64,000 nt of DNA from Candidatus Woesearchaeota archaeon (GTDB taxonomy: Archaea > Nanobdellota > Nanobdellia > Woesearchaeales > GCA-023898365): assembly GCA_023898365.1 (NCBI GenBank), contig CP060219.1, positions 133,743-197,742 of the forward strand. The letters run 5' to 3'. A program made the translations under genes and the position numbers. Position 1 is the stretch's first letter. The number at the start of each line of letters is the position of its first letter. The notes under the pieces were generated by a model, which saw nothing but the letters and a program-made list of their open reading frames with translations, did not search any database and had not been told where the DNA came from. Shown here in pieces: positions 47,301 to 63,906 of the stretch.

Positions 47301-49019
47301 TCACCTGCCTACATGAGTTGGGTGTTCATGTCCTGCCTCTTTTCTTCGATTCAAATGCTCTAAATGCACCATCTTTTCTTTTATGAATTTGTTTATGTCG
47401 GTTTTGTTTTTTTCAATCATTGTTGAAAAATGTTTTCCACCTAAAAAATGAGGCATTAAAACATATGTTGCGCCTTCATCGTACAATCTAACAGCATCAT
47501 CTATCTGATGCGACACCACTGCTATAATTGCTTTTTTATTATCCTCTTTAACTTTGTTTATTAATAACATGTTAGTGTCAATGAGAGGTATTGTCGAGAC
47601 AACCATTTTTGCCTTAGAAAAGTTAACCTCATTTAGAAATTCAGAATCTTCTGCATCCCCATATCTGCAATCGTATCCTTCTTTGAATAATTTTGTAATG
47701 ACTTCAGGATCATAATCAATAATGAGAAATTTCTTCTTTATTTTTTTTAGAGATTCCAAAATGTCGAACCCGATTCTATTATAACCAACAAGAATAATCT
47801 CATGATCGTCTTTCTCATGATACTTATGCTCATCAACTTTTCTTCCTTTTTTTTCAAATATGCTTAAATAATTTGATAGTGCTGGATAAAGTTTGTTGGC
47901 ATACAAGATCATATACGTCGATCCTGCAAACGTTATTAAACCTACTGCAGTGACTAAGGACAAGATTTCATTACTCACGTGACCTACTGAAACTCCTAAA
48001 GCAACAACAATCAAGGAGAATTCGCTTATTTGTGCAACTGTAAGTCCTGCTAAAAAACTGTTTCTCTTAGTATAACCCAAGAATCCCATAAGAGTCATTA
48101 CAATAATTGGATTGCCGATCATCACAAACAGAGAGAAAATCATGATAATGCCAATATTGTGATATAAATTTGAGAATGTCATTTGTGAGCCCAGCACAAT
48201 GAAAAATAGAACCAAGAAAAAATCCCTTAAAGGTTTCATTTTTGAACTTATCTCGAAATGATAAGGAGATACAGAAAGGGTCATTCCAGCAAGCAGCGCT
48301 CCCGCCTCAATAGAAAAATTGAGGTAGTGGAAAATTGTTGCAATGGCAAAACACCAACTAATTGAGAATAATAGTAAGAATTCTTGAGATTTGGCAATAA
48401 TCTTAATTACAGGCGGCATGATATACTTAGTGAAAATGAACAACAACAGCATTGCCCCCATACCTTTCAAAAAAGATCCTAGAGCTAAAGAAGTTAAACT
48501 AGAACCGTTACTAAGAGAAGAAATAACTAATAGAATCCCTATTGCTATGAAATCTTGCACAATCAAAAATCCTATAGCTATTCTCCCATATAATGATTCT
48601 AGGTCTTTCTTATCAGACAGCAGCTTCATGATAATAATCGTGCTGCTAAAAGTAAGTGCGATCGCAACATATACTGAAACCAGAGTGGATAGTCCTAATG
48701 CTTTTGAGATCAAAAACCCAACTGACGCAGTAAATACTACTTGGCCAATTCCTGTGATAAGGGATATTTTTCCAACATCTTTTATCACTTTTGGATTTAA
48801 ATTTAAACCCACAAAAAATAATAGCAGTGCAACTCCTATCTGAGAAAAAGCAGTCAGCGTATCAGAAGAATCAATTATGTTTAAGACAAAAGGACCAACA
48901 ATGATGCCGCTCAAGATGTACCCTATTATTGCTGGCTGCTTCAGAAGTCTTACAAAACCAGTAATAGCTACTGTTATAACAAGTATTTTGCTTAACTCAA
49001 CAAATATATCTGAACTCAT
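47301..49019 (-). CDS. CPA2-family cation:proton antiporter with C-terminal RCK/TrkA-N domain (Kef-like)
   Basis: 572 aa with about 12 predicted TMs, followed by 'IILVGYNRIGFDILESL', a Rossmann-like segment. Confidence 0.85.
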   Translation of the reverse strand: MSSDIFVELSKILVITVAITGFVRLLKQPAIIGYILSGIIVGPFVLNIIDSSDTLTAFSQIGVALLLFFVGLNLNPKVIKDVGKISLITGIGQVVFTASVGFLISKALGLSTLVSVYVAIALTFSSTIIIMKLLSDKKDLESLYGRIAIGFLIVQDFIAIGILLVISSLSNGSSLTSLALGSFLKGMGAMLLLFIFTKYIMPPVIKIIAKSQEFLLLFSISWCFAIATIFHYLNFSIEAGALLAGMTLSVSPYHFEISSKMKPLRDFFLVLFFIVLGSQMTFSNLYHNIGIIMIFSLFVMIGNPIIVMTLMGFLGYTKRNSFLAGLTVAQISEFSLIVVALGVSVGHVSNEILSLVTAVGLITFAGSTYMILYANKLYPALSNYLSIFEKKGRKVDEHKYHEKDDHEIILVGYNRIGFDILESLKKIKKKFLIIDYDPEVITKLFKEGYDCRYGDAEDSEFLNEVNFSKAKMVVSTIPLIDTNMLLINKVKEDNKKAIIAVVSHQIDDAVRLYDEGATYVLMPHFLGGKHFSTMIEKNKTDINKFIKEKMVHLEHLNRRKEAGHEHPTHVGR

Positions 49020-49027
49020 TTTATTGA

Positions 49028-49525
49028 TTAATAGTCTTTTAACAATTTTATAATACTGCTTGGAGTGACAACACCAATTACCTTGTCGTTTTCATTGAGA
49101 ACAGGAACATATTCAAATCCTTTTTTCCCCACTAATTTTATCACTTTATTGATTGGAGTGTCAGCTCTGACAAATGATTTGTGCTTATTTATCATACTTA
49201 TAGCTGATTTGTGGAGAAATTCTCTTCTATACCCAATGTTAAGTAGTTGAACAAGTGGTTCGTATTTAACTTGCTGCAAAAAGAGCCTAACAATATCATT
49301 ATCACTAATTTCTCCTAAAAACTTTTTTTCTTTTGTCACAACAATACATGCATTCACGTGCTCTTTCTCCAGTTTTTTCAGTATCTTCTTCACCGTATCA
49401 TCGGGATACAATAATACTGGCTTAACCATTGCATCTTTCGCACATAATTGCTTAACTTCTAATTCGCTACGCAACCTTTCTGCATGTTCTCTTCTTTTGA
49501 CTTGAAAATCCGTTAACTCACTCAT
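49028..49525 (-). CDS. CBS-domain pair protein
   Basis: 165 aa. 'AKDAMVKPVLLYPDDTV...ACIVVTKEKKFLGEISDNDIV' and 'VPVLNENDKVIGVVTPSSIIK'. ATGA overlap with the ATPase gene. Confidence 0.8.
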   Translation of the reverse strand: MSELTDFQVKRREHAERLRSELEVKQLCAKDAMVKPVLLYPDDTVKKILKKLEKEHVNACIVVTKEKKFLGEISDNDIVRLFLQQVKYEPLVQLLNIGYRREFLHKSAISMINKHKSFVRADTPINKVIKLVGKKGFEYVPVLNENDKVIGVVTPSSIIKLLKDY

Positions 49526-52209
49526 TGAACATACCTCCTTCCAAACATATTTGATTTCATCAACAACTTACTCAATTCCATAAATAGTAAACCAAATAAT
49601 GAAACAAGCAGTATGATTAGCCAATCACCCCAGAGCAAAGGAACAGTGCCAAATATTGCTTGCAAAGGAACCCAGTAAATAACAGCCAAATGAACCATTA
49701 CTGAAAGACAAACAGCCCCAAACAGCAGTTTGTTTGAAAAAGGATTTAATTTCGCCAAAGAAGGCGACAATGATCTGCTACTCATTACAGCAAACATCTG
49801 AATCATAACTAACGCAGTAAATGCTACTGTTTGCGCTTTAACTAAACTGACATCTTTGTATAAAACAAATAAGAATAATGTGCCAAGACCCATTATAAGA
49901 CCTATTATGATAATAGAAGCAAAAAGTTTATTTGAAATAGGTTTTTCATCGGGATCTCTTGGCTGCCGCTTCATAATCCCCTCTTCGGCAGCTTCAAACC
50001 CCAAACCCAAAGCTGGAGATGTATCCGTAAGCATGTTTATCAGGAGGATTTGAAGCGGCAGTAATGGCAATGGAAAATTAAGAAGAATAGCAGTAAGTAT
50101 AGTAATAATTTCTCCTGTGTTGCACGACAAAAGATATTTTGCAGATTTAATCATTTTGTCATAAATATTTCTTCCTTCCTTAATTGCACTAACAATCGAT
50201 GCAAAATTATCATCAGTCAGAATAGCTTTTGAAACTTCTTTGGCGACATCAGTTCCGGTAATACCCATTGCAATCCCTATGTCTGCTTTTTTAAGAGCGG
50301 GAGCATCGTTAACTCCATCTCCAGTCATGGCAACAATATGACCTTTATTCTGTAATACATTGACGATTCTAAGTTTATGAATGGGCATCGCACGAGCAAT
50401 TATTCTCACATCATCAATAATTTTCTCGAGCTCAAAATCGCTCATTTTTTCGACATCTTCACCAGATAATATCAAATCCCCTTTCCTAAATAACCCAATT
50501 TGCTCTGCTACTGCTTTTGTTGTTATTGCCTGATCCCCTGTTATGATCATAACTTTTATTCCAGCATCCTGACATTGTTCAACTGCTAGCCTAACTTCAT
50601 CTCTTGCAGGATCGATCATTCCGGCAAGACCAACAAAAACAAGGTTATTCTCCACGTTGCTTATCATATACTTTTTAGAATGAGGAAGTTCTCGGTAGGC
50701 CAATGCGAGAACTCGCAGGGCTTTTTTTGCATAGTTACGATTCACATCTAAAATTTTTTTTCTATCTTCTTTTGTGAGCTTTCTTATTACCCCATTTTCA
50801 AATATTTTATCGCATCTGTCAAGTAATAGATCGGGGGCGCCTTTAACATATGCTTCTGCCTTTTTACTAATATTGTTCTTAAAAATAACCGACATTCGTT
50901 TTCTGTCAGAATCAAAAGGTAATTCTTCAATGAAAGTAAATTTCTTCTGCAATTGTTTGTCATCAAGACATCCTTTTTTACCAAGAACTATCAAAGATCC
51001 TTCTGTCGGATCTCCTAAAATTTCACTTTTTTTTCCGTTCCTCACTAGTTTGGCATTGTTGCACATATACCCTATTCTGAAGAATAATTCTAATTTTTTA
51101 GGATTGATCTGTTTTTTTCCTTCGAAAAAATTCCCTTCAGGATTGTAGCCAGTTCCACTGACAGTAATAGTTCTATTACTGCAAAACAAGCTGGTAATAG
51201 TCATTTGATTTTTTGTTATCGTCCCAGTTTTATCACTGCATATAATCGTAGAAGCACCTAAGCTTTCCGCTGCGGGAAGCTTTTTAATTAGCATTTTCTT
51301 TTTTGCGAGGTCTTTTGCTCCTTTTGATAATCCAACAGTCACAATTACTGGAAGAGCGCTTGGAATTGTTGCTACAGCAAGAACTAGCGCGAACAAAAGC
51401 ATTTTTCCAAATGTTAGCGTGCCTTGTAATGTTCCAGAGATCAGTACAATGATAATTAAAATAACTGCGGCAATCCCTATTTGCTTTGCCAGTCTTTCAA
51501 ATTTAGCCTGAAGCGGAGTGATAGTTTCTTTTGTTGTTTGCAGCGAAGCAGCAATTTTACCAAATTCTGTTTTTATTCCAGTATTAGTAACAATACTTTT
51601 TCCTTTCCCATAGGTAACAGTGCAACCCATGAAAGCCATGTTTTCTTGATCTGATATGGAAATGCCAGCTTTGAATGGTTCTATTGTTTTCTTTGAAGGG
51701 ACGGATTCTCCTGTTAAGGATGCTTCATCAATTTGCAGGCTCGATATATCTAATAATCTTGAATCTGCCGGAACAATATCCCCTGCTTCAAGTAATAGAA
51801 TGTCACCTGGAACTACTTCTTTTGCAGGAATTTTTTGTTCTTCTCCACTTCGTAGGACTCTTGCTGTTGGAGAGGAAAGTTTCTCTAATGCTTCTATTGC
51901 TTTTTCAGCTTTATATTCTTGATAAAAGCCAAGCAAAGCATTTAGAATTACTATTGCAAAAATTGCTATTGATTCAACCAATTCGCCAAGGAAAAAAGAT
52001 ATGATGCCTGCAAGAATAAGCAGAAGGATAAGAGGATTTTTGAATTGACCGATGAAAATGTTCAGCAATCTAAACTTTTTTTCTTTAGGCAGTTCATTAT
52101 AACCAAATTCTTCCAATCTTTTTTGGGCTTCTTTTTTAGTCAAACCATACTCTGAGCTGTTCAACAACCTAATTGATTCCTTTGAACTAACAGCATAATA
52201 GTCGTTCAT
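49522..52209 (-). CDS. P-type cation-transporting ATPase (type II, Ca2+/cation-like)
   Basis: 895 aa. 'LTGES', 'CSDKTGTITKNQM', 'KGAPD', 'MITGDQ', 'GDGVNDAPALKKADIGIAMG'. Confidence 0.95.
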   Translation of the reverse strand: MNDYYAVSSKESIRLLNSSEYGLTKKEAQKRLEEFGYNELPKEKKFRLLNIFIGQFKNPLILLLILAGIISFFLGELVESIAIFAIVILNALLGFYQEYKAEKAIEALEKLSSPTARVLRSGEEQKIPAKEVVPGDILLLEAGDIVPADSRLLDISSLQIDEASLTGESVPSKKTIEPFKAGISISDQENMAFMGCTVTYGKGKSIVTNTGIKTEFGKIAASLQTTKETITPLQAKFERLAKQIGIAAVILIIIVLISGTLQGTLTFGKMLLFALVLAVATIPSALPVIVTVGLSKGAKDLAKKKMLIKKLPAAESLGASTIICSDKTGTITKNQMTITSLFCSNRTITVSGTGYNPEGNFFEGKKQINPKKLELFFRIGYMCNNAKLVRNGKKSEILGDPTEGSLIVLGKKGCLDDKQLQKKFTFIEELPFDSDRKRMSVIFKNNISKKAEAYVKGAPDLLLDRCDKIFENGVIRKLTKEDRKKILDVNRNYAKKALRVLALAYRELPHSKKYMISNVENNLVFVGLAGMIDPARDEVRLAVEQCQDAGIKVMIITGDQAITTKAVAEQIGLFRKGDLILSGEDVEKMSDFELEKIIDDVRIIARAMPIHKLRIVNVLQNKGHIVAMTGDGVNDAPALKKADIGIAMGITGTDVAKEVSKAILTDDNFASIVSAIKEGRNIYDKMIKSAKYLLSCNTGEIITILTAILLNFPLPLLPLQILLINMLTDTSPALGLGFEAAEEGIMKRQPRDPDEKPISNKLFASIIIIGLIMGLGTLFLFVLYKDVSLVKAQTVAFTALVMIQMFAVMSSRSLSPSLAKLNPFSNKLLFGAVCLSVMVHLAVIYWVPLQAIFGTVPLLWGDWLIILLVSLFGLLFMELSKLLMKSNMFGRRYVQ

Positions 52210-52454
52210 CTATTTCGGCCCCACTTATCATTTAATAATAATCCTGTAAACGCAAAATAGATTGAGAGAATAAAAAATATGAGACCAGTTCCTAAATACA
52301 CCGTATACTGCTTTAATTGCCCAGGATATAGAGTTGACCAAATAATAACACCCGAGTAAACAATAATATAAATAACCGAAAAAATACCTAGAGGGCGTTC
52401 TATGTATCTTACTTTCATCCAAAAGGAATATCTTTCCATTTCTTCTTTTTTCAA
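52206..52454 (-). CDS. Small two-TM protein
   Basis: 82 aa maximal ORF (TTG start; an ATG alternative at 52439). ATGA overlap with the ATPase gene. Confidence 0.4.
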   Translation of the reverse strand: MKKEEMERYSFWMKVRYIERPLGIFSVIYIIVYSGVIIWSTLYPGQLKQYTVYLGTGLIFFILSIYFAFTGLLLNDKWGRNR

Positions 52455-52531
52455 ATGGCGTTATGACATAATAGACCTTTTTAAAGAAGAAACCAAAAGT
52501 AAGTAAAAAAAAGGAAAAAAGAAGGAAAAAA

Positions 52532-52960
52532 TCACTTAAATAGGGAATTGCCGAGCGTCGTTAATTTAAGATATTTGTTATTACCTTTTTCTTCAAAAGA
52601 AACATAATTCATTTCGATTAAGAAATCAATTCTTTTTTTTATAGTAGGTTTTGTAATTTTTAATTTTTTTCTTAATTTTGACTGATTAATCAAAATTCCT
52701 TTTTTATTCTCATCATCAATCATTTGCATGATTTTCATCAATTCTTCCGGCATAAGCTTATTTATTCTTCTTTTGTAATATCCTAAGAATGCTTTTGCCA
52801 CAATTATAAATAAGGTAAGAAAGAGCATTAATTGAATTATGGAATGTACAACTGAACTACCTAATAAGTGATCGAAGATGTCATCCACTATTTCAGTGAT
52901 AATAAAAAGCGTAAAAAGCACAATAAAAAGATTCCTATCCTGCCGATTATAACTGATCAT
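52532..52960 (-). CDS. Membrane-tethered winged-helix protein
   Basis: Two N-terminal TMs, then 'LINQSKLRKKLKITKPTIKKRIDFLIEMNYVSFEEKGNNKYLKLT'. The ATG at 52960 is preferred over the maximal ORF start at 53005. Confidence 0.5.
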   Translation of the reverse strand: MISYNRQDRNLFIVLFTLFIITEIVDDIFDHLLGSSVVHSIIQLMLFLTLFIIVAKAFLGYYKRRINKLMPEELMKIMQMIDDENKKGILINQSKLRKKLKITKPTIKKRIDFLIEMNYVSFEEKGNNKYLKLTTLGNSLFK

Positions 52961-53146
52961 TTTTTCTCCAACGCACTTCGAGTAACTTCTTTGACAGATT
53001 CTCACATAAGAATTTGCCTCAATAAACTTTGAAAAATGTCCCTCTATCGTATCATGATCTTGTAAGCTTTCTTTTGCTCATCGATCAGTATTCATACAAA
53101 AAGCTCCAAAAGCATCAGGATTTAAACATGTTTGCATGTAAAGCAA

Positions 53147-53884
53147 TTAATCATTATCCACTCGTGGTGCGAGGACAAAGCTTAACTCTAATTTGTTGAG
53201 TTGTTTGTACTCGATGTTGAGCGGGTAATCATCTGAGAATTTGAGCGTCATTTTATCTGCAAGTTTGCTTCCTTGCATGATTTTCTTTAAGTACTCAATG
53301 GAGTATTTTGATTTTGCTTCTTTTTCTACCACTATTTTTGTGGTGTCGTCGCCTTCCATTTCAACGTCCGCTTTTGTGAGGTCGTTTTGGGATGCGATGA
53401 TGAATTTGTTCTTTTCTGTTTGTAAGGTGACTGATTCACCAACAATATCCATATCATCAATTGCTTCTGCGAAGCTTGAGGAAAGGGTTACTATAGTTGA
53501 AGAAAAGGTTAGTCCTGGAACGCGTTGTTCTTGTTCGTCCATTTCTAAGAGTGGTAATTGGAAGGATCTCTTTGTTTTTGCTTTTAAGGTAATGTGAAGT
53601 TTTGAATCCTTAAGTTCGAGTGTGAGCGTGTCGTTTGGTCCTGCTCGTCTAAGAACTTGTTTGAGATTGTTCAGATTAATCGCGATTGTTTGCGGTTCTT
53701 TTATGTCATATTCGACAAAACAGGAAGATAGAAGCTTGAAAATGACCATGGCAACGTTTGCTGGGTCAATTGCGACGAGTTCCAAGCCATCGCTTGTGAA
53801 CTTCATGGAAGTTTCAGTGACAAGATCAGAAATTATGGTAATTGAATCTTTGAGCAATCTTGGTTCAGATAGTGTTAGTCTCAT
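53147..53884 (-). CDS. pcn: DNA polymerase sliding clamp PCNA
   Basis: 245 aa from the ATG at 53884. 'MRLTLSEPRLLKDSITIISDLVTETSMKFTSDGLELVAIDPANVAMV' and two-domain length match the PCNA pattern. Confidence 0.88.
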   Translation of the reverse strand: MRLTLSEPRLLKDSITIISDLVTETSMKFTSDGLELVAIDPANVAMVIFKLLSSCFVEYDIKEPQTIAINLNNLKQVLRRAGPNDTLTLELKDSKLHITLKAKTKRSFQLPLLEMDEQEQRVPGLTFSSTIVTLSSSFAEAIDDMDIVGESVTLQTEKNKFIIASQNDLTKADVEMEGDDTTKIVVEKEAKSKYSIEYLKKIMQGSKLADKMTLKFSDDYPLNIEYKQLNKLELSFVLAPRVDND

Positions 53885-53960
53885 TTTCTCCTCCCAGTAT
53901 AAGAAAAAGATCACGTTCTCTTTATATATTTTTTACTTTTCAAGAGTATATAAAGGATGC

Positions 53961-55214
53961 CTATGGCCAGACGAAAACATCTCCGTTTTCAAGAATGCGT
54001 GCTTGTGCACCGTGTTGTTCTGCAAGGAGTTTCACGGAATTGTTTAATTCTGGCGTGCCATGTGTTGGCAGGACCAATTTTGGCTGTGCAAGCGTAAGAA
54101 GTTTCTCCCTATCAGGCCTTGTTGCGTGTCCCGAGGTGTGAATTTCTTTTGTGACGTTCGTGTTCCGTTCTTCAAGGAGAGCTTCAAGTGCTCGGCGATT
54201 CTCTTCATTTTCTGGTGTTGGTATGACTCTGCAACTAAAGATGACTTCGTCACCTTTCTTAAAGTTGTAAAGGCCCTTTCTGACCATACGCGAAAGAACT
54301 GCTGAAGGCTCAGCTTGATGGCCAGTGACAAGAAGGACGTGCTGCGAGGGATCAACAAGTGATGCAAGAAAATTTTCGATCTTCTTTGGACGTTTAAGCA
54401 CCCGAACGTCTTCAAAATCAATACCTATCTCTTCGGCTGCTTTCACATACTTGTGCAAAGAATTGCCAAGGAGGGTGATTGTTCGACCAGAACGCTTTGC
54501 GCAATCTATAATGGTCTTGATTCGGGAAATATGTGATGCGAAAGTCGTAACGACAACCAAACCTTTTTGTTTGGTAATTTTTCGAAGCAAAGAACACATA
54601 TCCCGCGCAACCGACTGTTCTGTAGGATTCGTTGTCATCACTTCATTATTCAAACTGTTCAAAATAAGAATATCTGGCTTTGCAGCGACAATCCCTTCAT
54701 AATCAGGAGGTTCGCCAAGTGTTGGGGCATCATCTAAACGAAAATCATTCGCGTAAAGAATTCTTGCTGTTTTGGTTTTGACAAGAATAAGTGCGCTTTG
54801 GATCGTAGAATGTGTCACATGAATAAATTTTACTTGAATATTCCCGACCTTGATGTTGCGCTCGAAAGACACAGGTTTAAGATTGAGCTTCTTATTATAC
54901 TGTCGGATAACTGCCAAAGAAAAAGGCGTACCATACACGGGAAAAGGAAGGTGTTTGTAAAATTGCAACGCGCCCAAATGATCAAGATGCGCGTGAGAGA
55001 TAAACAAGGCCTTAACCTTTTTTTTCACATCCGTAATATTAGGGATTGCTCCAATACTGCGCAACGCCTTCAAACTCATTTCGGGAAGCGCATTCTTGCT
55101 GAAACGATCGACATGAAGACCAAGATCGAGTAAGAGACCATCACTTCCTTCTTCAATGTACGTGCAATTCCTACCTATCTCGCCATAACCACCCAAAGGA
55201 ATAATTTTTACCAT
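53961..55214 (-). CDS. rnj: Archaeal RNase J-like metallo-beta-lactamase/beta-CASP ribonuclease
   Basis: 417 aa. 'KIIPLGGYGEIGRNCTYIE', 'FISHAHLDHLGA', C-terminal 'HTSGHA'. Confidence 0.8.
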   Translation of the reverse strand: MVKIIPLGGYGEIGRNCTYIEEGSDGLLLDLGLHVDRFSKNALPEMSLKALRSIGAIPNITDVKKKVKALFISHAHLDHLGALQFYKHLPFPVYGTPFSLAVIRQYNKKLNLKPVSFERNIKVGNIQVKFIHVTHSTIQSALILVKTKTARILYANDFRLDDAPTLGEPPDYEGIVAAKPDILILNSLNNEVMTTNPTEQSVARDMCSLLRKITKQKGLVVVTTFASHISRIKTIIDCAKRSGRTITLLGNSLHKYVKAAEEIGIDFEDVRVLKRPKKIENFLASLVDPSQHVLLVTGHQAEPSAVLSRMVRKGLYNFKKGDEVIFSCRVIPTPENEENRRALEALLEERNTNVTKEIHTSGHATRPDREKLLTLAQPKLVLPTHGTPELNNSVKLLAEQHGAQARILENGDVFVWP

Positions 55215-55309: not shown

Positions 55310-55774
55310 TTACTCGCCTACCTCAATGTAAAAAGAAGGTCTCCAGATATGAACACGAGATTCTGATTGCTCACTAAGTTTTTGCGCGTCAGCATAAAAA
55401 ATTATCTTATGATAAGTATACTCAAGAGGTTTAGGATCATCAACACCTGAAAGTTGCACATCAAGACTGATCGAGTCTCCAGAGCCAAGATTATACCCGC
55501 CAAGACGTTTCAGAATGATGCCATCCTGATCAGTATACTCAAAATTGCTCACTTCATGATCAATTACAAAAGAATTATCCTCGCCATTTCCATTACTAGA
55601 TGACTTAGCTACGTGATACCAGACCTTCTGGCCGACAACAGGTTCTGCATTGTACAAAACACGCACATCCAACATGACATCAACAGGAATTACTCTTGAA
55701 TCAAGAAAACAACCAGAAAGAAAAAAACTACCCAAGAGCAAAAACAAAAGAATGAAAGCAGGAGTGAATTTCAC
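55310..55774 (-). CDS. Small secreted/lipoprotein-like protein
   Basis: 154 aa with a GTG start. 'FILLFLLLGSFFLSGC' is a lipobox-like Cys. Confidence 0.5.
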   Translation of the reverse strand: MKFTPAFILLFLLLGSFFLSGCFLDSRVIPVDVMLDVRVLYNAEPVVGQKVWYHVAKSSSNGNGEDNSFVIDHEVSNFEYTDQDGIILKRLGGYNLGSGDSISLDVQLSGVDDPKPLEYTYHKIIFYADAQKLSEQSESRVHIWRPSFYIEVGE

Positions 55775-55961
55775 ACCTTACCATATTCGTAACCATATAA
55801 ATAAGTTTCGATAAAAGAAGCTTTGAAAGAGAAAAAAAGAACAACAATCAAAGATGAGATTTCATGAAGGCAACCATGTCGTTTTCTGCCATGTTTACTA
55901 CCTCGTAAAGCACGGTTTTATTTAAACATCGGTCAGACAGCGCATTAGAATGTAATAAAAG

Positions 55962-56127
55962 TGCGGAGGAAAGTAACTTCATTAGCATTCAGGACCTTCC
56001 TGAGAAACACACAAGAAAAATAAATGCGGGGGAAGGTAACTTCATTAGCATTCAGGACCTTCCTGAGAAACAAACAAGAAAAATAAATGCGGGGGAAGGT
56101 AACTTCATTAGCATTCAGGACCTTCCC
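55962..56127 (-). repeat. 63-bp tandem repeat (2.6 copies), each copy starting with a 12-nt copy of the tRNA-Leu 3' end
   Basis: Copies lie at 55962-56024, 56025-56087 (3 mismatches between them) and 56088-56127 (identical to copy 2 over 40 nt). On the minus strand each unit reads GGAAGGT-19 nt-ACCTTCCCCCGCA followed by TTTATTTTTCTTG. Confidence 0.9.
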
Positions 56128-56175
56128 ACAATTGAGAAAATCCTAAAAACCAACGAAGCCCTTCAATCCGCATGA

Positions 56176-56312
56176 TGCGGGGGAAGGGATTCGAACCCTC
56201 GAACCTACTTAAGGACTAGATTCCTCAAAGGCGCAAACGATCCAAATGATAGTTTGCCTGCGTAAGCAGTTTCTTGAGTCTAGCGCATTTGACCAGACTT
56301 TGCTACCCCCGC
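56176..56312 (-). tRNA. tRNA-Leu (anticodon CAA), class II, with a 51-nt canonical intron; no encoded CCA
   Basis: I folded it by hand. Acceptor GCGGGGG/CCCCCGC. D-arm TAGCAAAGTCTGGTCAAATGC is archaeal Leu-like. Anticodon stem CTAGA/TCTAG with loop CTCAAG|A. It has a long variable arm and T-arm GAGGG-TTCGAAT-CCCTT. Confidence 0.9.
56222..56272 (-). other. tRNA-Leu intron at canonical 37/38
   Basis: The 51 nt lie between CTCAAG and ATCTAG. The intron 3' segment TTTGAG pairs with anticodon-loop CTCAAG, leaving a GA|A bulge as expected for a bulge-helix-bulge motif. Confidence 0.8.
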
Positions 56313-56372
56313 GCTAAGGAGAAGAAAACCTAGCTGGTTTTTTAAATGTGATGGTAAGAAAGAGAAAAAGAA

Positions 56373-59567: not shown

Positions 59568-61253
59568 ATGAAAAAAACCCAGATAGTGTTCATTATCATC
59601 CTCGGGTGCTGTATGATAAGTTCCTTCGCCAGTTCTTGCAATGAAAACATGACAGGATGTTTTGACGTAGAACTAACACTCCACCAAACAGAACCAGTAC
59701 TTAACACAACATACACGAATTTATTTCGATTGGAAAATTTAGATCATGAACAAGGAGTGGAAGAACAACTACGCATTTTTGTAACCTATAATGTATCATG
59801 GCATAACGAAACGTACAATAATTCATTTCTCAAGACAATCAACTCCTATTCAACGACCGGAACAGGAACGTTTACGTTTTCTGCAAACACAAGCCATCTT
59901 CTCTGCGGCGAAATCAGAAACATTTCACAAAACGGAGAGCAGATTAGTGATCCCCACCCGGAAAATAATGTTCTTTGCACCGCAATTGTTTTCGATAACA
60001 CCAGTAATGCAACGGTCAACGAAACAGGTAACGCAACAAACGAGTCTGAAGAAGGAGTTTGCAATCAATCAGTACGTTTCCTCGTTTTGCAGGCGCTAAG
60101 CAATCACAGTTTTCAATTTAAACCAATAATTTCTGCAGAACAACATTGGACGCTCACCTATTGGATAGAAGATCTTGATGGTGTCATATTCAAACAACCT
60201 ATGAACACAACAAACACGAACTGGAAATCATTTACTCCCAGCTCAAGTGTTACGGGAGAAAAAATATTCAGGCTTTACGGACGTCTCAACACAACGTGTG
60301 CACAAACAGAAAACTCAACGTTTCTTTTGCTCAAAAGAGCGCAAGAAGAAAATGAAGAATCATCAGAAAGTGAATGCGTAGAAGATGAAGAAGAACAACA
60401 AGAATCAGCATTGTCATTTACCGCATTACCTGAGGAAATAATTGCAGGATCGACAATTTCGATAAAAGTCAAGGCATACCGAGGAAATACGCTCAAAAGG
60501 AAAGTGACGTTGAGAGGTCCTGGCAATCAAATGAGTTTTTTGATTAACGACAAATATGCTGAAACAGAAGTGACCATTCCCTTCACTATTGAGAAGAGTT
60601 GTTCACTCGAAGAAGGACCAGTTGATTTTATCCTTTCAGGTCTTGACGAAGAAAAAATTATTACCGCGCAGCTTTTCAGACCAACTCAAGATGAGTGCCA
60701 ACCAGCAGAAACGAATGCGACTACCAGCTCACCAAGTCAAAATAGCATTGCAAGTTTTTATACGCGAAAGAAAAAATATGCGCCGCACATAAATTTTTCC
60801 TATCGTCTTGAGCAAGAGTCAAACGACAGCTCAATACTACTTATCATTCCACATCTCCTTCTCAATACAACGACAAATGTGCCTGCTAAGCCAGGCAACA
60901 ACACCGTTTTTTTTCTGCTTAAAGAAGGAGAAGACATAATTGATTTTTTTGAATATCAGTATTTTCTTGAAGATGATTCGCTTAGTCTTGGCGAAAGTGA
61001 AGATCAAAAAGAATCCGAATCCGACTCGTCGAACAACACTCAACGTGAAGACAGTGATCGTTCTCCGCTTACTGGTTTAACCATTTCAGTTCCAAAGAAT
61101 GAGGGGAAGAAAGTAATCGCAATTAGTGTTTTAATCATGCTCGGCATAGCAACATTCGCTGTTGCGCTCATCAAACGAAAGAACATTATTTACGCGGTAC
61201 AACATAGTAGCTTTTATCTTCATAAGAAGAATTCAAAGGATGGAAAGGGTTGA
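59568..61253 (+). CDS. Sequon-rich type I membrane surface protein
   Basis: The ATG at 59568 gives 'MKKTQIVFIIILGCCMISSFASS' (maximal ORF starts at 59547). It has many N-x-S/T sequons and a C-terminal TM 'VIAISVLIMLGIATFAVALI'. Confidence 0.65.
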   Translation: MKKTQIVFIIILGCCMISSFASSCNENMTGCFDVELTLHQTEPVLNTTYTNLFRLENLDHEQGVEEQLRIFVTYNVSWHNETYNNSFLKTINSYSTTGTGTFTFSANTSHLLCGEIRNISQNGEQISDPHPENNVLCTAIVFDNTSNATVNETGNATNESEEGVCNQSVRFLVLQALSNHSFQFKPIISAEQHWTLTYWIEDLDGVIFKQPMNTTNTNWKSFTPSSSVTGEKIFRLYGRLNTTCAQTENSTFLLLKRAQEENEESSESECVEDEEEQQESALSFTALPEEIIAGSTISIKVKAYRGNTLKRKVTLRGPGNQMSFLINDKYAETEVTIPFTIEKSCSLEEGPVDFILSGLDEEKIITAQLFRPTQDECQPAETNATTSSPSQNSIASFYTRKKKYAPHINFSYRLEQESNDSSILLIIPHLLLNTTTNVPAKPGNNTVFFLLKEGEDIIDFFEYQYFLEDDSLSLGESEDQKESESDSSNNTQREDSDRSPLTGLTISVPKNEGKKVIAISVLIMLGIATFAVALIKRKNIIYAVQHSSFYLHKKNSKDGKG

Positions 61254-63906
61254 GTTCAAGATGAGTATTTGTTGAAACGTCAATCATTCTTCGCCACACT
61301 TCTTGTGACACGTCAGGAGACATCGGATAGGATTGTTCGAGGAGGCCATGATATGCTTGAGAAGTAAACAGCAATTGCCCCACATTAAATCCTGAAAAAA
61401 CTGCACCTTTTCCTCTACGAGAATATCTGCGTAGATCTGATTGACCTCGTTCACTTGAAACATTTAAGAAACCAATATTCCCTCCAAGTCCAAGAACAAA
61501 ATTTGCTTCTCGCGTATCACCACCAATATCTGCAGTGCCCGATTTCCCCCACAACAATTCTTCCCCTGCTTGATCGGTTAAAAAAACGCCAGTTGGCCAC
61601 GTTCGAAGACGCTGCCTCCACTCAGCTCGGTCTTTCTCAGATGGTGCAATAAGTGAATTTGGAGGCAATCCTTCGTAACCATATGAATAAGGAACAATCC
61701 TCGCATATGCTTGCGTTGCAGAAGCTGCAAAGGGTGAAAGCCCTCCATGAGGACTTATAGCCCGCTCAACAAAGACCGTGTCAGCACTACCGTTTGAAAC
61801 AACAAGTTTCGAAAACCAGCGAAGACCTGGAACTTCAATTGGTGCAGCTCCTTCGAATAGTACTTTGTTTGTTGTCAGCGCACCATGGTTTTGAAACATT
61901 AACAGGTAGGTAAGCGCATCATCAATATGAAGGGGCACTGCGCCAAGAATAGTTGCGTCAATCTTTGGATCTAATTGGTGTGATCGAGAAAATCCGATAC
62001 GCTCATTCCAAAATGAAGCAAGTTCTTCAGTGATAGTTGGCCTGCCTTCTTCTCTTCGTGCATTGTTTCCAATATTAAGAAGATTGACAAAATAGCGGTT
62101 TATTGACTTGCCAAGCGCAAAACTAAAATCGACAAGACCCCAATATTTATTTTTAAAATTTTTTATAGGAGGAGAAAATACGGGTCTTCCTTTCCAGTTA
62201 ATTCGTTTGTAGCGAACAGGATTAACGGGCGTGTCAGAAAAAATTTCTCTATCAAGTCCTTCTTCGATAAAGAAAGGAGCGTAGAGAAGCTTGCAAATAC
62301 TTCCAATTTGCCTTGGTTCATCAAACGAATGACCAGTTGCTTTTCCTCGGGTATTACTAAAAGCGGCAATGACATCGCCTTGTCTGCTTGCAACAATTCC
62401 CGTGAGATTAGGATCATCATCAATCGATAAGAGCGTGTCAAGAGATCCGAAGAGGCGAGGAACAAGCGTCTGTTGTTGATAAGGAAAATTTGTCAACGTC
62501 GTATGCACAGCAAGGTTTCTTGCAAGCAATTCTTCTCCCGTTTGTTTTGAAAGGTAACGCAAAATTTCACTTGCACGAGCATAGAGTGTGTTTTTTAACG
62601 CAATAGCGCCAGCGTTTTCCAAAGGTGCAGGTTTGCGGCCAGCAATTGAACTTGCAAACGAAAGAGATGAAGGAGGAGTAATACCATTTCCTTCAAGCGT
62701 TGGAGCAATTCTATAATGAAAATCATCTTGAAACAATTGTGCGAGAGAATCAACATATGCTTGCTGCGTGTTTGGTTCTCCTAAAAATCCTTCTGAATTA
62801 ATCGAAGGTTTGTTTGTTGAGGTGAGAAGCATCATCATTTCTGTTTCTGAAAGTGGCGAAGTGCGACCAAAATGGTGTAAAGATGCTGCGGCAAGGCCTC
62901 TTGAAAAAACACCTCTGTCAAGGCCAAACGGGATGTTATTAAGCGCGAGTTCGAGTAAGCGATACTTAATTACTTCTCTTACTTGTCTTTCAGGAAGCGT
63001 TGCTGCAAATGTTCGCTCCGCATCAGAAAAGAGGGGTGTTGTGGAAGGGTCAGCTACAAGAACAGAACGCGTAATTTCCTCAAGTTTTCTACCATAATCT
63101 CGTTCAAATTGTTTGTCGTCGCCAAGACGCATGAGTTGTTGCACAATAGTGCTGCTTCCTTTTGGAGATCCTGGTTTACTATCACTTCGCAGACCTCGAA
63201 CTAAGGAAGGCAAATCAATTCCGAAAAGCGAATATCCTTCGACCCCCTCCCAGTAATTCAAGAATTGAAGAACTTCAGAAGGCCTATACGTGGTGGTGTC
63301 TTGATGCCACGCACCTTTTTCAAAAAATTGTGAGTAAAATCCTGGAAGTACCTTCCCCTCTGAATCGCGAAGAACGGTAAGCGAATCTGGCAAGAAAATA
63401 GGAGGAGGAGTTCTATTTCGAAACATTTCTTTGCCTTGCACATCATAGACAATGAATTGTCGATTATGAGCAAATCCTTGCAAAGAAGCGATTTGATCCT
63501 CAAGAGAGTGTTCGTGAAGTTCCCTTTCAATACTCTGCGATAGCGCGTCCCAATCATGACCTTTGCGTTCAAGCACCACATCAATTCCTTTGAAAAGAGC
63601 TTGTTGGGTGAGTCCTAGACCTTCGTTTTTCCCTCCAAACCGCGCCACAAATGCTGCTGCAACGTTATCGTTACCTGATCGAAGGACAGCAGTTCCTACC
63701 TCTTGAACAAGTGACCGATAAGGAACGTGTGCAAGGGAGACGCCTATTGCAGATCCTGCGGCAAGAAGAGAAGCTGTTTTGAGAAGAGAGCGACGTTTTC
63801 GCGGAGCTCGTTCCTTGCTTGGAGAACCTTCTTTATTGAAATCTATCGTATAGAGTGGATCCTTCACAGATCCTTCTAAAGAGGGTTTAGAATCAGGCGC
63901 AACCAT
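61186..63906 (-). CDS. Class A penicillin-binding-protein-like bifunctional protein (GT51 glycosyltransferase + acyl-serine transpeptidase) with a Tat-like signal
   Basis: 906 aa. Tat-like signal 'RKRRSLLKTASLLAAGSAIGVSLA'. GT51 motifs 'EGVEGYSLFGID', 'KGSSTIVQQ', 'RKLEE', 'RLLELALNNIPFG..RGLAAASLHHFG'. Transpeptidase motifs SxxK 'GSICK', SxN 'KSINR', KSG 'GKSGTA'. TATA-like CATATATAAA (63929-63938) is centred about 27 nt upstream of the ATG. Confidence 0.8.
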   Translation of the reverse strand: MVAPDSKPSLEGSVKDPLYTIDFNKEGSPSKERAPRKRRSLLKTASLLAAGSAIGVSLAHVPYRSLVQEVGTAVLRSGNDNVAAAFVARFGGKNEGLGLTQQALFKGIDVVLERKGHDWDALSQSIERELHEHSLEDQIASLQGFAHNRQFIVYDVQGKEMFRNRTPPPIFLPDSLTVLRDSEGKVLPGFYSQFFEKGAWHQDTTTYRPSEVLQFLNYWEGVEGYSLFGIDLPSLVRGLRSDSKPGSPKGSSTIVQQLMRLGDDKQFERDYGRKLEEITRSVLVADPSTTPLFSDAERTFAATLPERQVREVIKYRLLELALNNIPFGLDRGVFSRGLAAASLHHFGRTSPLSETEMMMLLTSTNKPSINSEGFLGEPNTQQAYVDSLAQLFQDDFHYRIAPTLEGNGITPPSSLSFASSIAGRKPAPLENAGAIALKNTLYARASEILRYLSKQTGEELLARNLAVHTTLTNFPYQQQTLVPRLFGSLDTLLSIDDDPNLTGIVASRQGDVIAAFSNTRGKATGHSFDEPRQIGSICKLLYAPFFIEEGLDREIFSDTPVNPVRYKRINWKGRPVFSPPIKNFKNKYWGLVDFSFALGKSINRYFVNLLNIGNNARREEGRPTITEELASFWNERIGFSRSHQLDPKIDATILGAVPLHIDDALTYLLMFQNHGALTTNKVLFEGAAPIEVPGLRWFSKLVVSNGSADTVFVERAISPHGGLSPFAASATQAYARIVPYSYGYEGLPPNSLIAPSEKDRAEWRQRLRTWPTGVFLTDQAGEELLWGKSGTADIGGDTREANFVLGLGGNIGFLNVSSERGQSDLRRYSRRGKGAVFSGFNVGQLLFTSQAYHGLLEQSYPMSPDVSQEVWRRMIDVSTNTHLELNPFHPLNSSYEDKSYYVVPRK

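Follow-up and report, generated by a model that had tools for sequence, protein, structure and literature searches.

The repeats that lie directly behind the tRNA-Leu(CAA) gene of this uncultured Candidatus Woesearchaeota archaeon constitute an archaeal, non-homologous case of the known tRNA-distal repeats that carry a tRNA 3' end, and in that sense they are only moderately new. The repeated use of the tRNA end at this locus is real and goes well beyond chance. [quoted passage not shown] All positions given below refer to the window, by which we mean the complete stretch of 64,000 nucleotides that was analyzed.

The tRNA-Leu(CAA) gene and the array behind it

The gene is recognized by the Rfam model RF00005, which matches 56176-56312 on the minus strand over its full length with 45.9 bits and a 54-nt insertion in the anticodon loop. 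Reading the sequence by hand placed an intron in that loop and yielded the anticodon loop CUCAAGA, and hence the anticodon CAA (Leu). The terminal CCA is not encoded. ARAGORN, run in bacterial mode, reported zero tRNAs in the window, which reflects a limit of the tool and provides no argument against the gene. The features of the locus are the following, ordered along the tRNA strand:

56330-56345, minus strand: TATA-like element ATTTAAAAAA, about 30-35 nt 5' of the tRNA-Leu start, a putative tRNA promoter judged from sequence only
56176-56312, minus strand: tRNA-Leu(CAA) with intron, from the RF00005 match and the sequence parsed by hand
56273-56312, minus strand: exon 1 of tRNA-Leu(CAA), from the sequence parse
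56222-56272, minus strand: intron of tRNA-Leu(CAA), about 51 nt, at the canonical 37/38 position, from the sequence parse
56176-56221, minus strand: exon 2 of tRNA-Leu(CAA), from the sequence parse
56176-56187, minus strand: segment O, the final 12 nt of tRNA-Leu, CCTTCCCCCGCA, comprising the 3' part of the T stem, the 3' strand of the acceptor and the discriminator A
56133-56172, minus strand: 5' arm of the trailer hairpin, TGCGGATTGAAGGGCTTCGTTGGTTTTTAGGATTTTCTCA, an inverted copy of the repeat unit that starts 3 nt (TCA) past the tRNA end
56145-56149, minus strand: TTTTT run within the 5' arm, 27-31 nt past the tRNA end, a possible first archaeal termination signal
56129-56132, minus strand: loop of the trailer hairpin, ATTG, as placed by the folds
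56088-56128, minus strand: first (partial) repeat unit, H-O, ending in CCTTCCCCCGCA and forming the 3' arm of the trailer hairpin
56025-56087, minus strand: repeat unit 2, composed of T segment 56064-56087 (TTTATTTTTCTTGTTTGTTTCTCA), H 56037-56063 and an exact O at 56025-56036
55962-56024, minus strand: repeat unit 3, composed of T segment 56001-56024, H 55974-56000 and O' 55962-55973
55954-55961, minus strand: decayed start of another T segment, CTTTTATT as compared to TTTATTTT, marking the end of the array (register 55954-56016 in the repeat search)

Tandem Repeats Finder delimited the array as 55962-56126, with a period of 63, 2.6 copies, 97% matches and zero indels, and a repeat search of the window extended the register further, to 55954-56142. 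Together with the RF00005 match this confirms the description in an earlier note, made from the sequence alone, of a tRNA-Leu(CAA) gene followed by a 63-bp tandem array. The same note counted four occurrences of the tRNA 3' 12-mer, and these were recovered: TGCGGGGGAAGG, the reverse complement of the final 12 nt of tRNA-Leu, is exact at 56025, at 56088 and at 56176 (the tRNA end), and is degenerate at 55962, where it has 2 mismatches. The array in which they reside is nevertheless limited to 2.6 units and is not a long one. When up to 2 mismatches were allowed, the 12-mer was found 7 times in the window as compared to an expectation of 1.55, a number that was reached in 0 of 100 shuffles; the other three of these matches are distant from the locus, two of them on the opposite strand, and represent noise. 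The true identity between the array and tRNA-Leu amounts to 13 nt, as the T that is located 3' of the discriminator is also common, and it stops abruptly on the T-stem side.

On the tRNA strand the order of the elements is tRNA...CCTTCCCCCGCA / TCA / TGCGGATTGAAGGGCTTCGTTGGTTTTTAGGATTTTCTCA / ATTG / TGGGAAGGTCCTGAATGCTAATGAAGTTACCTTCCCCCGCA / TTTATTTTTCTTGTTTGTTTCTCA / H-O / T / H-O'. The units at 56088 and 56025 read GGAAGGT-19 nt-ACCTTCCCCCGCA-TTTATTTTTCTTG, and the third unit ends in CTTTCCTCCGCA-CTTTTATTAC. Compared to unit 2, unit 3 has one T/G difference in the T segment and an identical H, and its O' (CTTTCCTCCGCA) carries two C-to-T changes. Every intact copy of the tRNA-like end is directly followed on its 3' side by TTTATTTTT. 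The units can be read, as was done before, as a stem with a 19-nt loop that is followed by oligo-T, but the 7-bp stem itself is marginal: it has -14.3 kcal/mol and a z of -2.5 in the first unit and a z of only -0.8 in the third, and in the internal unit it is not the minimum-energy fold. It is weak beside the hairpin of the trailer that is described below.

A decayed tRNA copy was considered as the origin of the unit and rejected. The 27-nt H segment, and likewise T and H combined, are unlike the tRNA body (shuffle p = 0.83 and 0.80, respectively); as H shows no likeness to the rest of the tRNA and only the final 12-13 nt are common, the units are not decayed tRNA copies. Tandem duplication, on the other hand, is required in any scenario, because the period includes the T-rich segment 3' of the tRNA-like end and because units 2 and 3 share their boundaries. 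The earlier note had offered three explanations without choosing between them, namely att scars, slippage duplication of the tRNA end plus terminator, and small mimics of tRNA ends; the proposal is supported in part, and slippage duplication is the option that lies closest to the evidence.

The trailer hairpin and 3' end formation

The 49-nt trailer of tRNA-Leu repeats the array unit imperfectly and in inverted orientation (p = 0.0025 versus shuffles when the reverse complement of the 5' arm is aligned to H-O). The corresponding 85-nt inverted repeat (56088-56172) begins 3 nt (TCA) past the end of tRNA-Leu. Transcribed as RNA from the tRNA strand, the 5' arm and the first unit are predicted to fold into a hairpin of 36 bp with -46.6 kcal/mol, versus -23.8 kcal/mol on the plus strand, and with a z of -6.3 relative to dinucleotide shuffles. 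The hairpin continues straight into TTTATTTTT / UUUAUUUUU. Moreover, the cloverleaf and the hairpin are both present in the centroid fold of the whole region. An inverted partner exists for the first unit only; units 2 and 3 have none. The inverted copy at 56133-56172, and with it the much stronger 36-bp hairpin, had been overlooked in the earlier note.

At the base of the helix the inverted copy (UGCGG..GAAGG) is paired with the direct copy of the final 12 nt of the tRNA (CCUUC..CCGCA). More specifically, the GCGG/CCGC at this base equals the acceptor pairs 1-72 to 4-69 of tRNA-Leu and is followed by the discriminator A. In the predicted fold this A pairs with a U, and the helix is broken by a 3x2 internal loop beyond its first 5 bp, which consist of the U-A pair and the four acceptor-like ones.

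The composition of the helix is asymmetric. Eight of its 36 pairs are G·U and none of the 36 is A·C, an outcome with a P of ~0.004 if the direction of the transitions were random. The excess of G·U points either to pairing that was kept at the RNA level or to strand-biased C-to-T change on the non-template strand. Likewise, both changes that distinguish the third copy of the tRNA end are C-to-T on the non-template (tRNA) strand.

These observations bear on an account of the locus in which chance microhomology led to the duplication of intergenic DNA by purely neutral slippage and in which neither the hairpin nor the copies have a role. The array is indeed short and young (97% identity), has few copies, and its last copy is already decaying, all of which would fit such a process. 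However, arbitrary DNA would not be expected to yield the exact 12-13-nt terminus of a tRNA three times and once more in inverted orientation, and the 8 G·U versus 0 A·C within the 36-bp helix speak for a constraint on the RNA, or at any rate for transcription across the helix. We therefore consider a purely neutral origin improbable.

The interpretation of the region as a 3' end-formation module draws on the z of -6.3 of the trailer hairpin, the strand-specific folding energy, the 8 G·U versus 0 A·C pairs, the TTTATTTTT on the 3' side of the intact copies and the acceptor-like base of the helix. It is also in line with the coexistence of cloverleaf and hairpin in the fold, the similar architecture at E. 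coli tyrT, and the housekeeping nature of the neighboring genes. Hairpin and T-tracts are observed, as are the strand asymmetry and the parallel to E. coli; we infer that transcription would run through the hairpin, terminate at the T-tracts and be followed by processing. An archaeal RNA polymerase that passes the T5 run of the 5' arm would halt at the oligo-T tract 3' of the hairpin, or else at the back-up copies of this tract, and halting at the T-tracts of hairpin and array would insulate the same-strand gene at 55310-55774. The extra units would have arisen as repeated H-O segments underwent slipped-strand or unequal recombination with each other, and the 12-nt copy of the tRNA end may persist because it makes up half of the closing helix. 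As that helix mimics the top of an acceptor stem, an RNase Z-type enzyme could free the hairpin, comparable to the RtT RNA that derives from the E. coli tyrT transcript.

Several points weigh against the end-formation module. The T5 run within the 5' arm may stop most transcripts before the hairpin can form. Archaeal RNA polymerase terminates at oligo-T and does not need a hairpin, and as oligo-T alone suffices, the hairpin has no established role in archaeal termination. Furthermore, units 2 and 3 would offer nothing more than oligo-T signals and a weak hairpin of their own, and the excess of G·U could stem from strand-biased C-to-T deamination on the non-template strand of a highly transcribed gene. 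A scan with a terminator consensus returned no site on the minus strand, but its rules (loop of 3-8, simple stem) are unsuited to long interrupted stems. The locus would resemble intrinsic-type terminators and the archaeal oligo-T terminators behind tRNA genes in its stable hairpin, in the UUUAUUUUU that follows at once and in the further T-tracts in tandem, as far as sequence allows the comparison. It differs in that the stem of 36 bp with internal loops is far longer than usual, in that a T5 run is located in the 5' arm, and in that the stem derives from a copy of the end of the tRNA itself.

Comparison with the tyrT repeats of E. coli

Repeats that re-copy the tRNA 3' end have been known for decades behind the tyrT tRNA genes of E. 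coli. We have re-analyzed these directly in strain MG1655, where a 178-bp repeat is present in 3.1 copies distal to tyrV and where every unit ends with the final 19 nt of tRNA-Tyr. The Rfam model of the RtT RNA (RF00391) detects four units, with 133-138 bits. Within each unit, the tRNA-like end finds its pairing partner in an inverted copy further upstream (UGCGGGGAAGGAU with AUCCUUCCCCCAC), and the structure displays no strand asymmetry and a single G·U.

The two sets of repeats correspond in a number of respects. Like the tyrT-tyrV repeats and the RtT RNA (RF00391; rttR, tpr), the woesearchaeal units are arranged in tandem directly distal to a tRNA gene and on the same strand, and their copy number is low (3.1 in E. 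coli versus 2.6 here). In both cases the units end in the 3' terminus of the tRNA next to them, over 19 nt in E. coli and over 12-13 nt here, with 2 mismatches in the third unit, and in both the tRNA-end segment and an upstream inverted copy close a hairpin, in every unit of E. coli and in the first unit only here. The differences concern the length of the unit (178 bp in E. coli versus 63 bp here), the oligo-T tract that follows the copies in the archaeon, the tRNA, which in the archaeon has an intron and lacks an encoded CCA, and the host, which is a DPANN archaeon and not an enterobacterium. Between 55700 and 56450 RF00391 gave no match at E <= 10, so that the locus is not homologous to RtT. 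Thus, the woesearchaeal repeats and the E. coli RtT repeats have the same architecture, whereas their sequences are not homologous.

The parallel raises the possibility of a small RNA or decoy similar to RtT. According to a preprint (bioRxiv 10.1101/2024.07.17.603846), the rtT RNA of E. coli is processed from the tyrT transcript, takes part in the processing of this transcript and probably has a role in the stringent response, by a mode of action that is unknown. By analogy, the trailer hairpin and perhaps the units might be cut from the tRNA-Leu transcript by tRNA-processing enzymes, to produce stable RNAs with an acceptor-like end whose targets would be the enzymes of CCA addition, 3' processing or aminoacylation, or which would play a part in a stress response. 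The strand-specific and G·U-rich pairing would be compatible with such an RNA, as would the base of the helix, which reproduces 4 bp of the acceptor stem and has the discriminator A at its end, and, by analogy, the architectural parallel to RtT. The details of the structure are less favorable: units 2 and 3 lack the acceptor-like 5' strand, the discriminator A is paired to a U with the 3x2 internal loop following after 5 bp, a T5 run lies ahead of the 3' arm, and no Rfam family matches, even at E <= 10. All in all, we would rate an RtT-like role as rather improbable. The same rating applies to its fuller form, a true archaeal counterpart of RtT, in which the tRNA-maturation enzymes would process the trailer into a stable hairpin RNA of ~85 nt that mimics an acceptor stem, in which the repeats would give rise to further and shorter species, and in which a DPANN cell with a reduced genome would use these RNAs to regulate the metabolism of tRNA 3' ends or as decoys in it.

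The minihelix-like mimics of tRNA ends that had been suggested for the units as drawn fail, as there is no adjacent acceptor 5' strand and 6 nt overhang the 7-bp stem. The trailer hairpin might be such a mimic, as its base does reproduce 4 bp of the acceptor stem; in the modeled fold the discriminator A is paired and the internal loop follows. The plant mitochondrial t-elements and mascRNA-type structures are tRNA-like processing signals. These have in common with the trailer hairpin a helix that imitates the acceptor end of a tRNA beside a real RNA 3' end and that, by analogy, may recruit tRNA-processing enzymes. Unlike them, the hairpin has just 4 acceptor-like bp and no mimic of the T-loop, and its cleavage is conjectural.

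Besides the tRNA, no Rfam family scored above threshold in the locus, and a search at E <= 10 returned noise only; the sub-threshold matches to snoRNA families had 13.5-27.3 bits as compared to gathering scores of 45-88 bits. A C/D-box or H/ACA sRNA within the unit or the intron was rejected as well, as inspection by eye did not reveal a pair of C box and D box at the required spacing.

The tyrT repeats of E. coli also bear a small basic ORF, tpr, and in the archaeal array each 63-bp unit can be read on the plus strand as a 20-codon frame running from ATG to TAA (MRGKVTSLAFRTFLRNKQEK). The array would then consist of tandem mini-ORFs that encode small basic peptides. The presence of three head-to-tail ORFs in phase with the 63-bp period, of a TATA-like TTTATTTAAA some 35 nt upstream on the plus strand, and of tpr in E. 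coli might be taken to suggest this. Nevertheless, the ATG is the complement of the discriminator A and its neighbors, the TAA is the complement of the T-tract, and the frame is antisense to the tRNA transcription unit. In addition, two of the three differences between the units are non-synonymous, and the ORFs have neither homologues nor a ribosome-binding signal. A coding function therefore appears scarcely credible.

Mobile elements, neighboring genes and wider meaning

Copies of a tRNA 3' end are also left behind by integration, and repeated integration and excision at a tRNA att site was among the explanations offered before. In its most explicit form, a mobile element with an att core of 12-13 bp equal to the 3' end of tRNA-Leu would once have integrated and thereby shifted the original tRNA end downstream, together with the oligo-T terminator native to it (O-T); a later deletion would have left only the arms of the element (S1 = P', H = P), and slippage would then have duplicated the P-O-B' junction. 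In line with this scenario, each of the displaced copies precedes a T-rich trailer as expected on the 3' side of an archaeal tRNA gene, whereas the present trailer of the tRNA differs, and the identity ends abruptly at the tRNA terminus. The core of 12-13 bp is comparable to the att core of SNJ2 at tRNA-Met, which at 14 bp illustrates that archaeal att cores can be that short (PMC5861418), and tRNA fragments derived from integration are common in archaea (PMC9897764). Moreover, tRNA-Leu(CAA) genes with the same 22-nt 3' end are located at the ends of, or beside, viral contigs of IMG/VR. This 22-nt end was found on 4 contigs, beside intron-less archaeal tRNA-Leu(CAA) genes, and one of the four has an att-like fragment of ~70 nt. 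Genes for tRNA-Leu(CAA) of this type thus serve as integration sites in other archaea, with a much longer identity.

At the locus itself no positive support for att scars was obtained. On the downstream side within the 64-kb window there is no gene for an integrase or a mobile element, and the window contains no further copy of the core. The H-O junction had 0 matches in IMG/VR. A search of the JGI metagenomes with the stem-gap-core pattern returned 27 matches, about the number expected by chance and none of them with the same loop; 8 of the 27 come from an unrelated family of repeats whose contigs have a eukaryotic appearance, an interrupted Rab-type GTPase, and poly(A) behind the motif. The unit did not match the GenBank phages, and among the PLSDB plasmids it had just two chance matches of 22-25 nt. 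An attP-like copy was not found in any of these four collections. The geometry is equally unfavorable: with a spacing of 63 nt between copies, and with what should be host flank inside the unit, integration alone cannot build the array and slippage must be added on top. The hypothetical attP would be a near-perfect palindrome of 83 nt, which is unusual, and the directional G·U pattern is not predicted. Compared to known archaeal duplications of att cores (SNJ2 with its 14-bp core and PYG1 with 44-bp repeats; PMC5861418, PMC9897764), the locus shares direct repeats that equal the 3'-distal part of a tRNA and a core length within the known range, but it has no element or integrase, copies that are 63 nt and not kilobases apart, a unit that includes the flank, and no attP partner among the sequences searched. 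Taken together, an integration history as the source of the first extra copy is unlikely, while not far-fetched.

The palindrome could, alternatively, be the mobile entity itself. The 85 nt at 56088-56172 would then represent a foldback (MITE-like), non-autonomous element that landed beside the tRNA, and the array would be its right half, partially duplicated. The inverted arms of 40 and 41 nt, 4 nt apart, have the appropriate form, and they adjoin a tRNA gene; tRNA genes are a frequent landing zone for mobile DNA. We regard this as very unlikely, however, as the flanks, TCA and TTT, do not form a target-site duplication and as the 64-kb window and the ~10 kb of adjoining contig contain no second copy. 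The element is likewise unmatched in IMG/VR, the JGI metagenomes, the GenBank phages and PLSDB, and the identity of its termini with the final 12 nt of the tRNA would be left unexplained.

The genes around the locus are ordinary cellular or housekeeping genes. Downstream of tRNA-Leu they encode a hypothetical lipoprotein-like protein of 154 aa, RNase J, PCNA, a P-type ATPase, a CBS protein, a Na/H exchanger and ThiI; upstream they encode small coiled-coil proteins and a beta-CASP nuclease. Close relatives are absent from the databases, the nearest other homologue of the RNase J being 41% identical among 5.8 billion proteins, and a scan of the GTDB genomes returned one distant Methanosarcinales locus only. 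A replication origin with ORB-like G-strings was considered for the region and found unlikely, as the inverted copies do not enclose an AT-rich unwinding element and as the cumulative GC skew does not turn.

Logan short-read contigs of the same strain match the window without a difference over 11.9 and 7.7 kb; in the runs examined they end at 55883 and start again at 56285. The short-read assemblies of the strain thus break on either side of the locus, at points that the array itself does not explain. In particular, the repeated 31-mers of the window start only at 55973, so that the left break at 55883 is not accounted for by the array; it could reflect a structural variant of the 401-bp segment. 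A small ORF inside the contig gap was looked up and nothing was found. A second tRNA trailer was sought in the same strain's contigs, which extend ~10 kb past the end of the window and ~0.8 kb before its start, and the gene maps of these parts show no evident tRNA-sized gaps.

The finding has a practical side, as copies of a tRNA end such as these can pass for att scars or tRNA fragments in annotation. With respect to evolution, a non-homologous example from the DPANN archaea that follows the same logic, in which an inverted and a direct copy of the tRNA end close a hairpin, suggests that this architecture can arise repeatedly. It could do so as a by-product of the evolution of tRNA trailers and terminators, or because such RNAs are useful. 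If the archaeal counterpart of RtT were true, its independent invention in E. coli and in an archaeon would speak for a general function of distal repeats that bear the tRNA end. Finally, should the hairpin RNA indeed be produced and processed, it would add a new small RNA to a group of archaea in which RNA biology has hardly been explored.

The tRNA-Leu(CAA) gene and the sequences beside the array

The gene for tRNA-Leu(CAA) that precedes the 63-bp tandem array is interrupted at the canonical 37/38 position:

56222-56272, minus strand, intron of about 51 nt

Structure prediction pairs the 3' part of the intron (CUUUGAG) with the anticodon (CUCAAG). ARAGORN in bacterial mode returned no tRNAs across the entire 64-kb window, and it misses this gene because of the intron.

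On the plus strand of the array (55961-56146) every 63-bp unit forms an in-phase mini-ORF of 19-20 codons that runs from a start codon (GTG in the first, ATG in the other two) to TAA (MRGKVTSLAFRTFLRNKQEK and variants). These mini-ORFs recall tpr, the small basic ORF that is carried by the tRNA-distal tyrT repeats of E. coli, and they are probably a by-product of the discriminator plus T-tract sequence. In addition, the interval between the array and the downstream gene for a 154-aa hypothetical protein contains, at 55917-55928, a TATA-like element that is nearly palindromic (TTTATTTAAACA; the opposite strand reads TGTTTAAATAAA). The element could serve this minus-strand gene, or antisense transcription into the array.

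Similar sequences in metagenomic and predicted viral contigs

The seven-bp stem and the 13-mer (the 12-nt tRNA 3' end plus T) of the archaeal unit are also found in a repeat family on eight JGI metagenome contigs (L006, L007, L010, L012, L014, L019, L022 and L032; Ga0209562 / Ga0066192), which are eukaryote-like. The family has the terminus ACGGGGTAAGGAAGGTCCTAAAAAGACACTGATACCTTCCCCCGCA followed by poly(A) and looks like a SINE-type element bearing a tRNA end; the stem and 13-mer are apparently shared with the archaeal unit by chance.

Archaeal tRNA-Leu(CAA) genes whose 22-nt 3' end is identical to that of the tRNA in the window were observed inside or at the ends of predicted viral contigs from IMG/VR:

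L034, 11530-11637, tRNA-Leu(CAA) site
L035, 8699-8785, tRNA-Leu(CAA) site
L036, tRNA-Leu(CAA) site

On L034 there is a partial tRNA, about 70 nt long and missing the 5' acceptor strand, which resembles the long att copies that are typically seen.

Other features of the window

Between 48000 and 54000 the G+C content falls to 0.34-0.36, against about 0.40-0.43 in the rest of the window, and neither an integrase nor an att copy was seen in this stretch. Further along lies a gene whose Transgly domain is unusual for archaea.

48000-54000, genes for a Na/H exchanger, a CBS protein, a P-type ATPase, a small wHTH membrane protein and PCNA
61186-63906, minus strand, gene for a protein of 906 aa that contains the Pfam domain Transgly (PF00912, peptidoglycan glycosyltransferase)

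Contig breaks around the array

Short-read (Logan) contigs of the same strain match the window with 0 mismatches, stop at 55883 and restart at 56285. The contig end at 56285 is common to both runs (SRR12358675 and SRR12358676), that at 55883 occurs in SRR12358676 only. The repeated 31-mers of the array begin no earlier than 55973, and therefore the array does not account for the left break. A variant of the 401-bp segment in between (55884-56284) may occur in the population.
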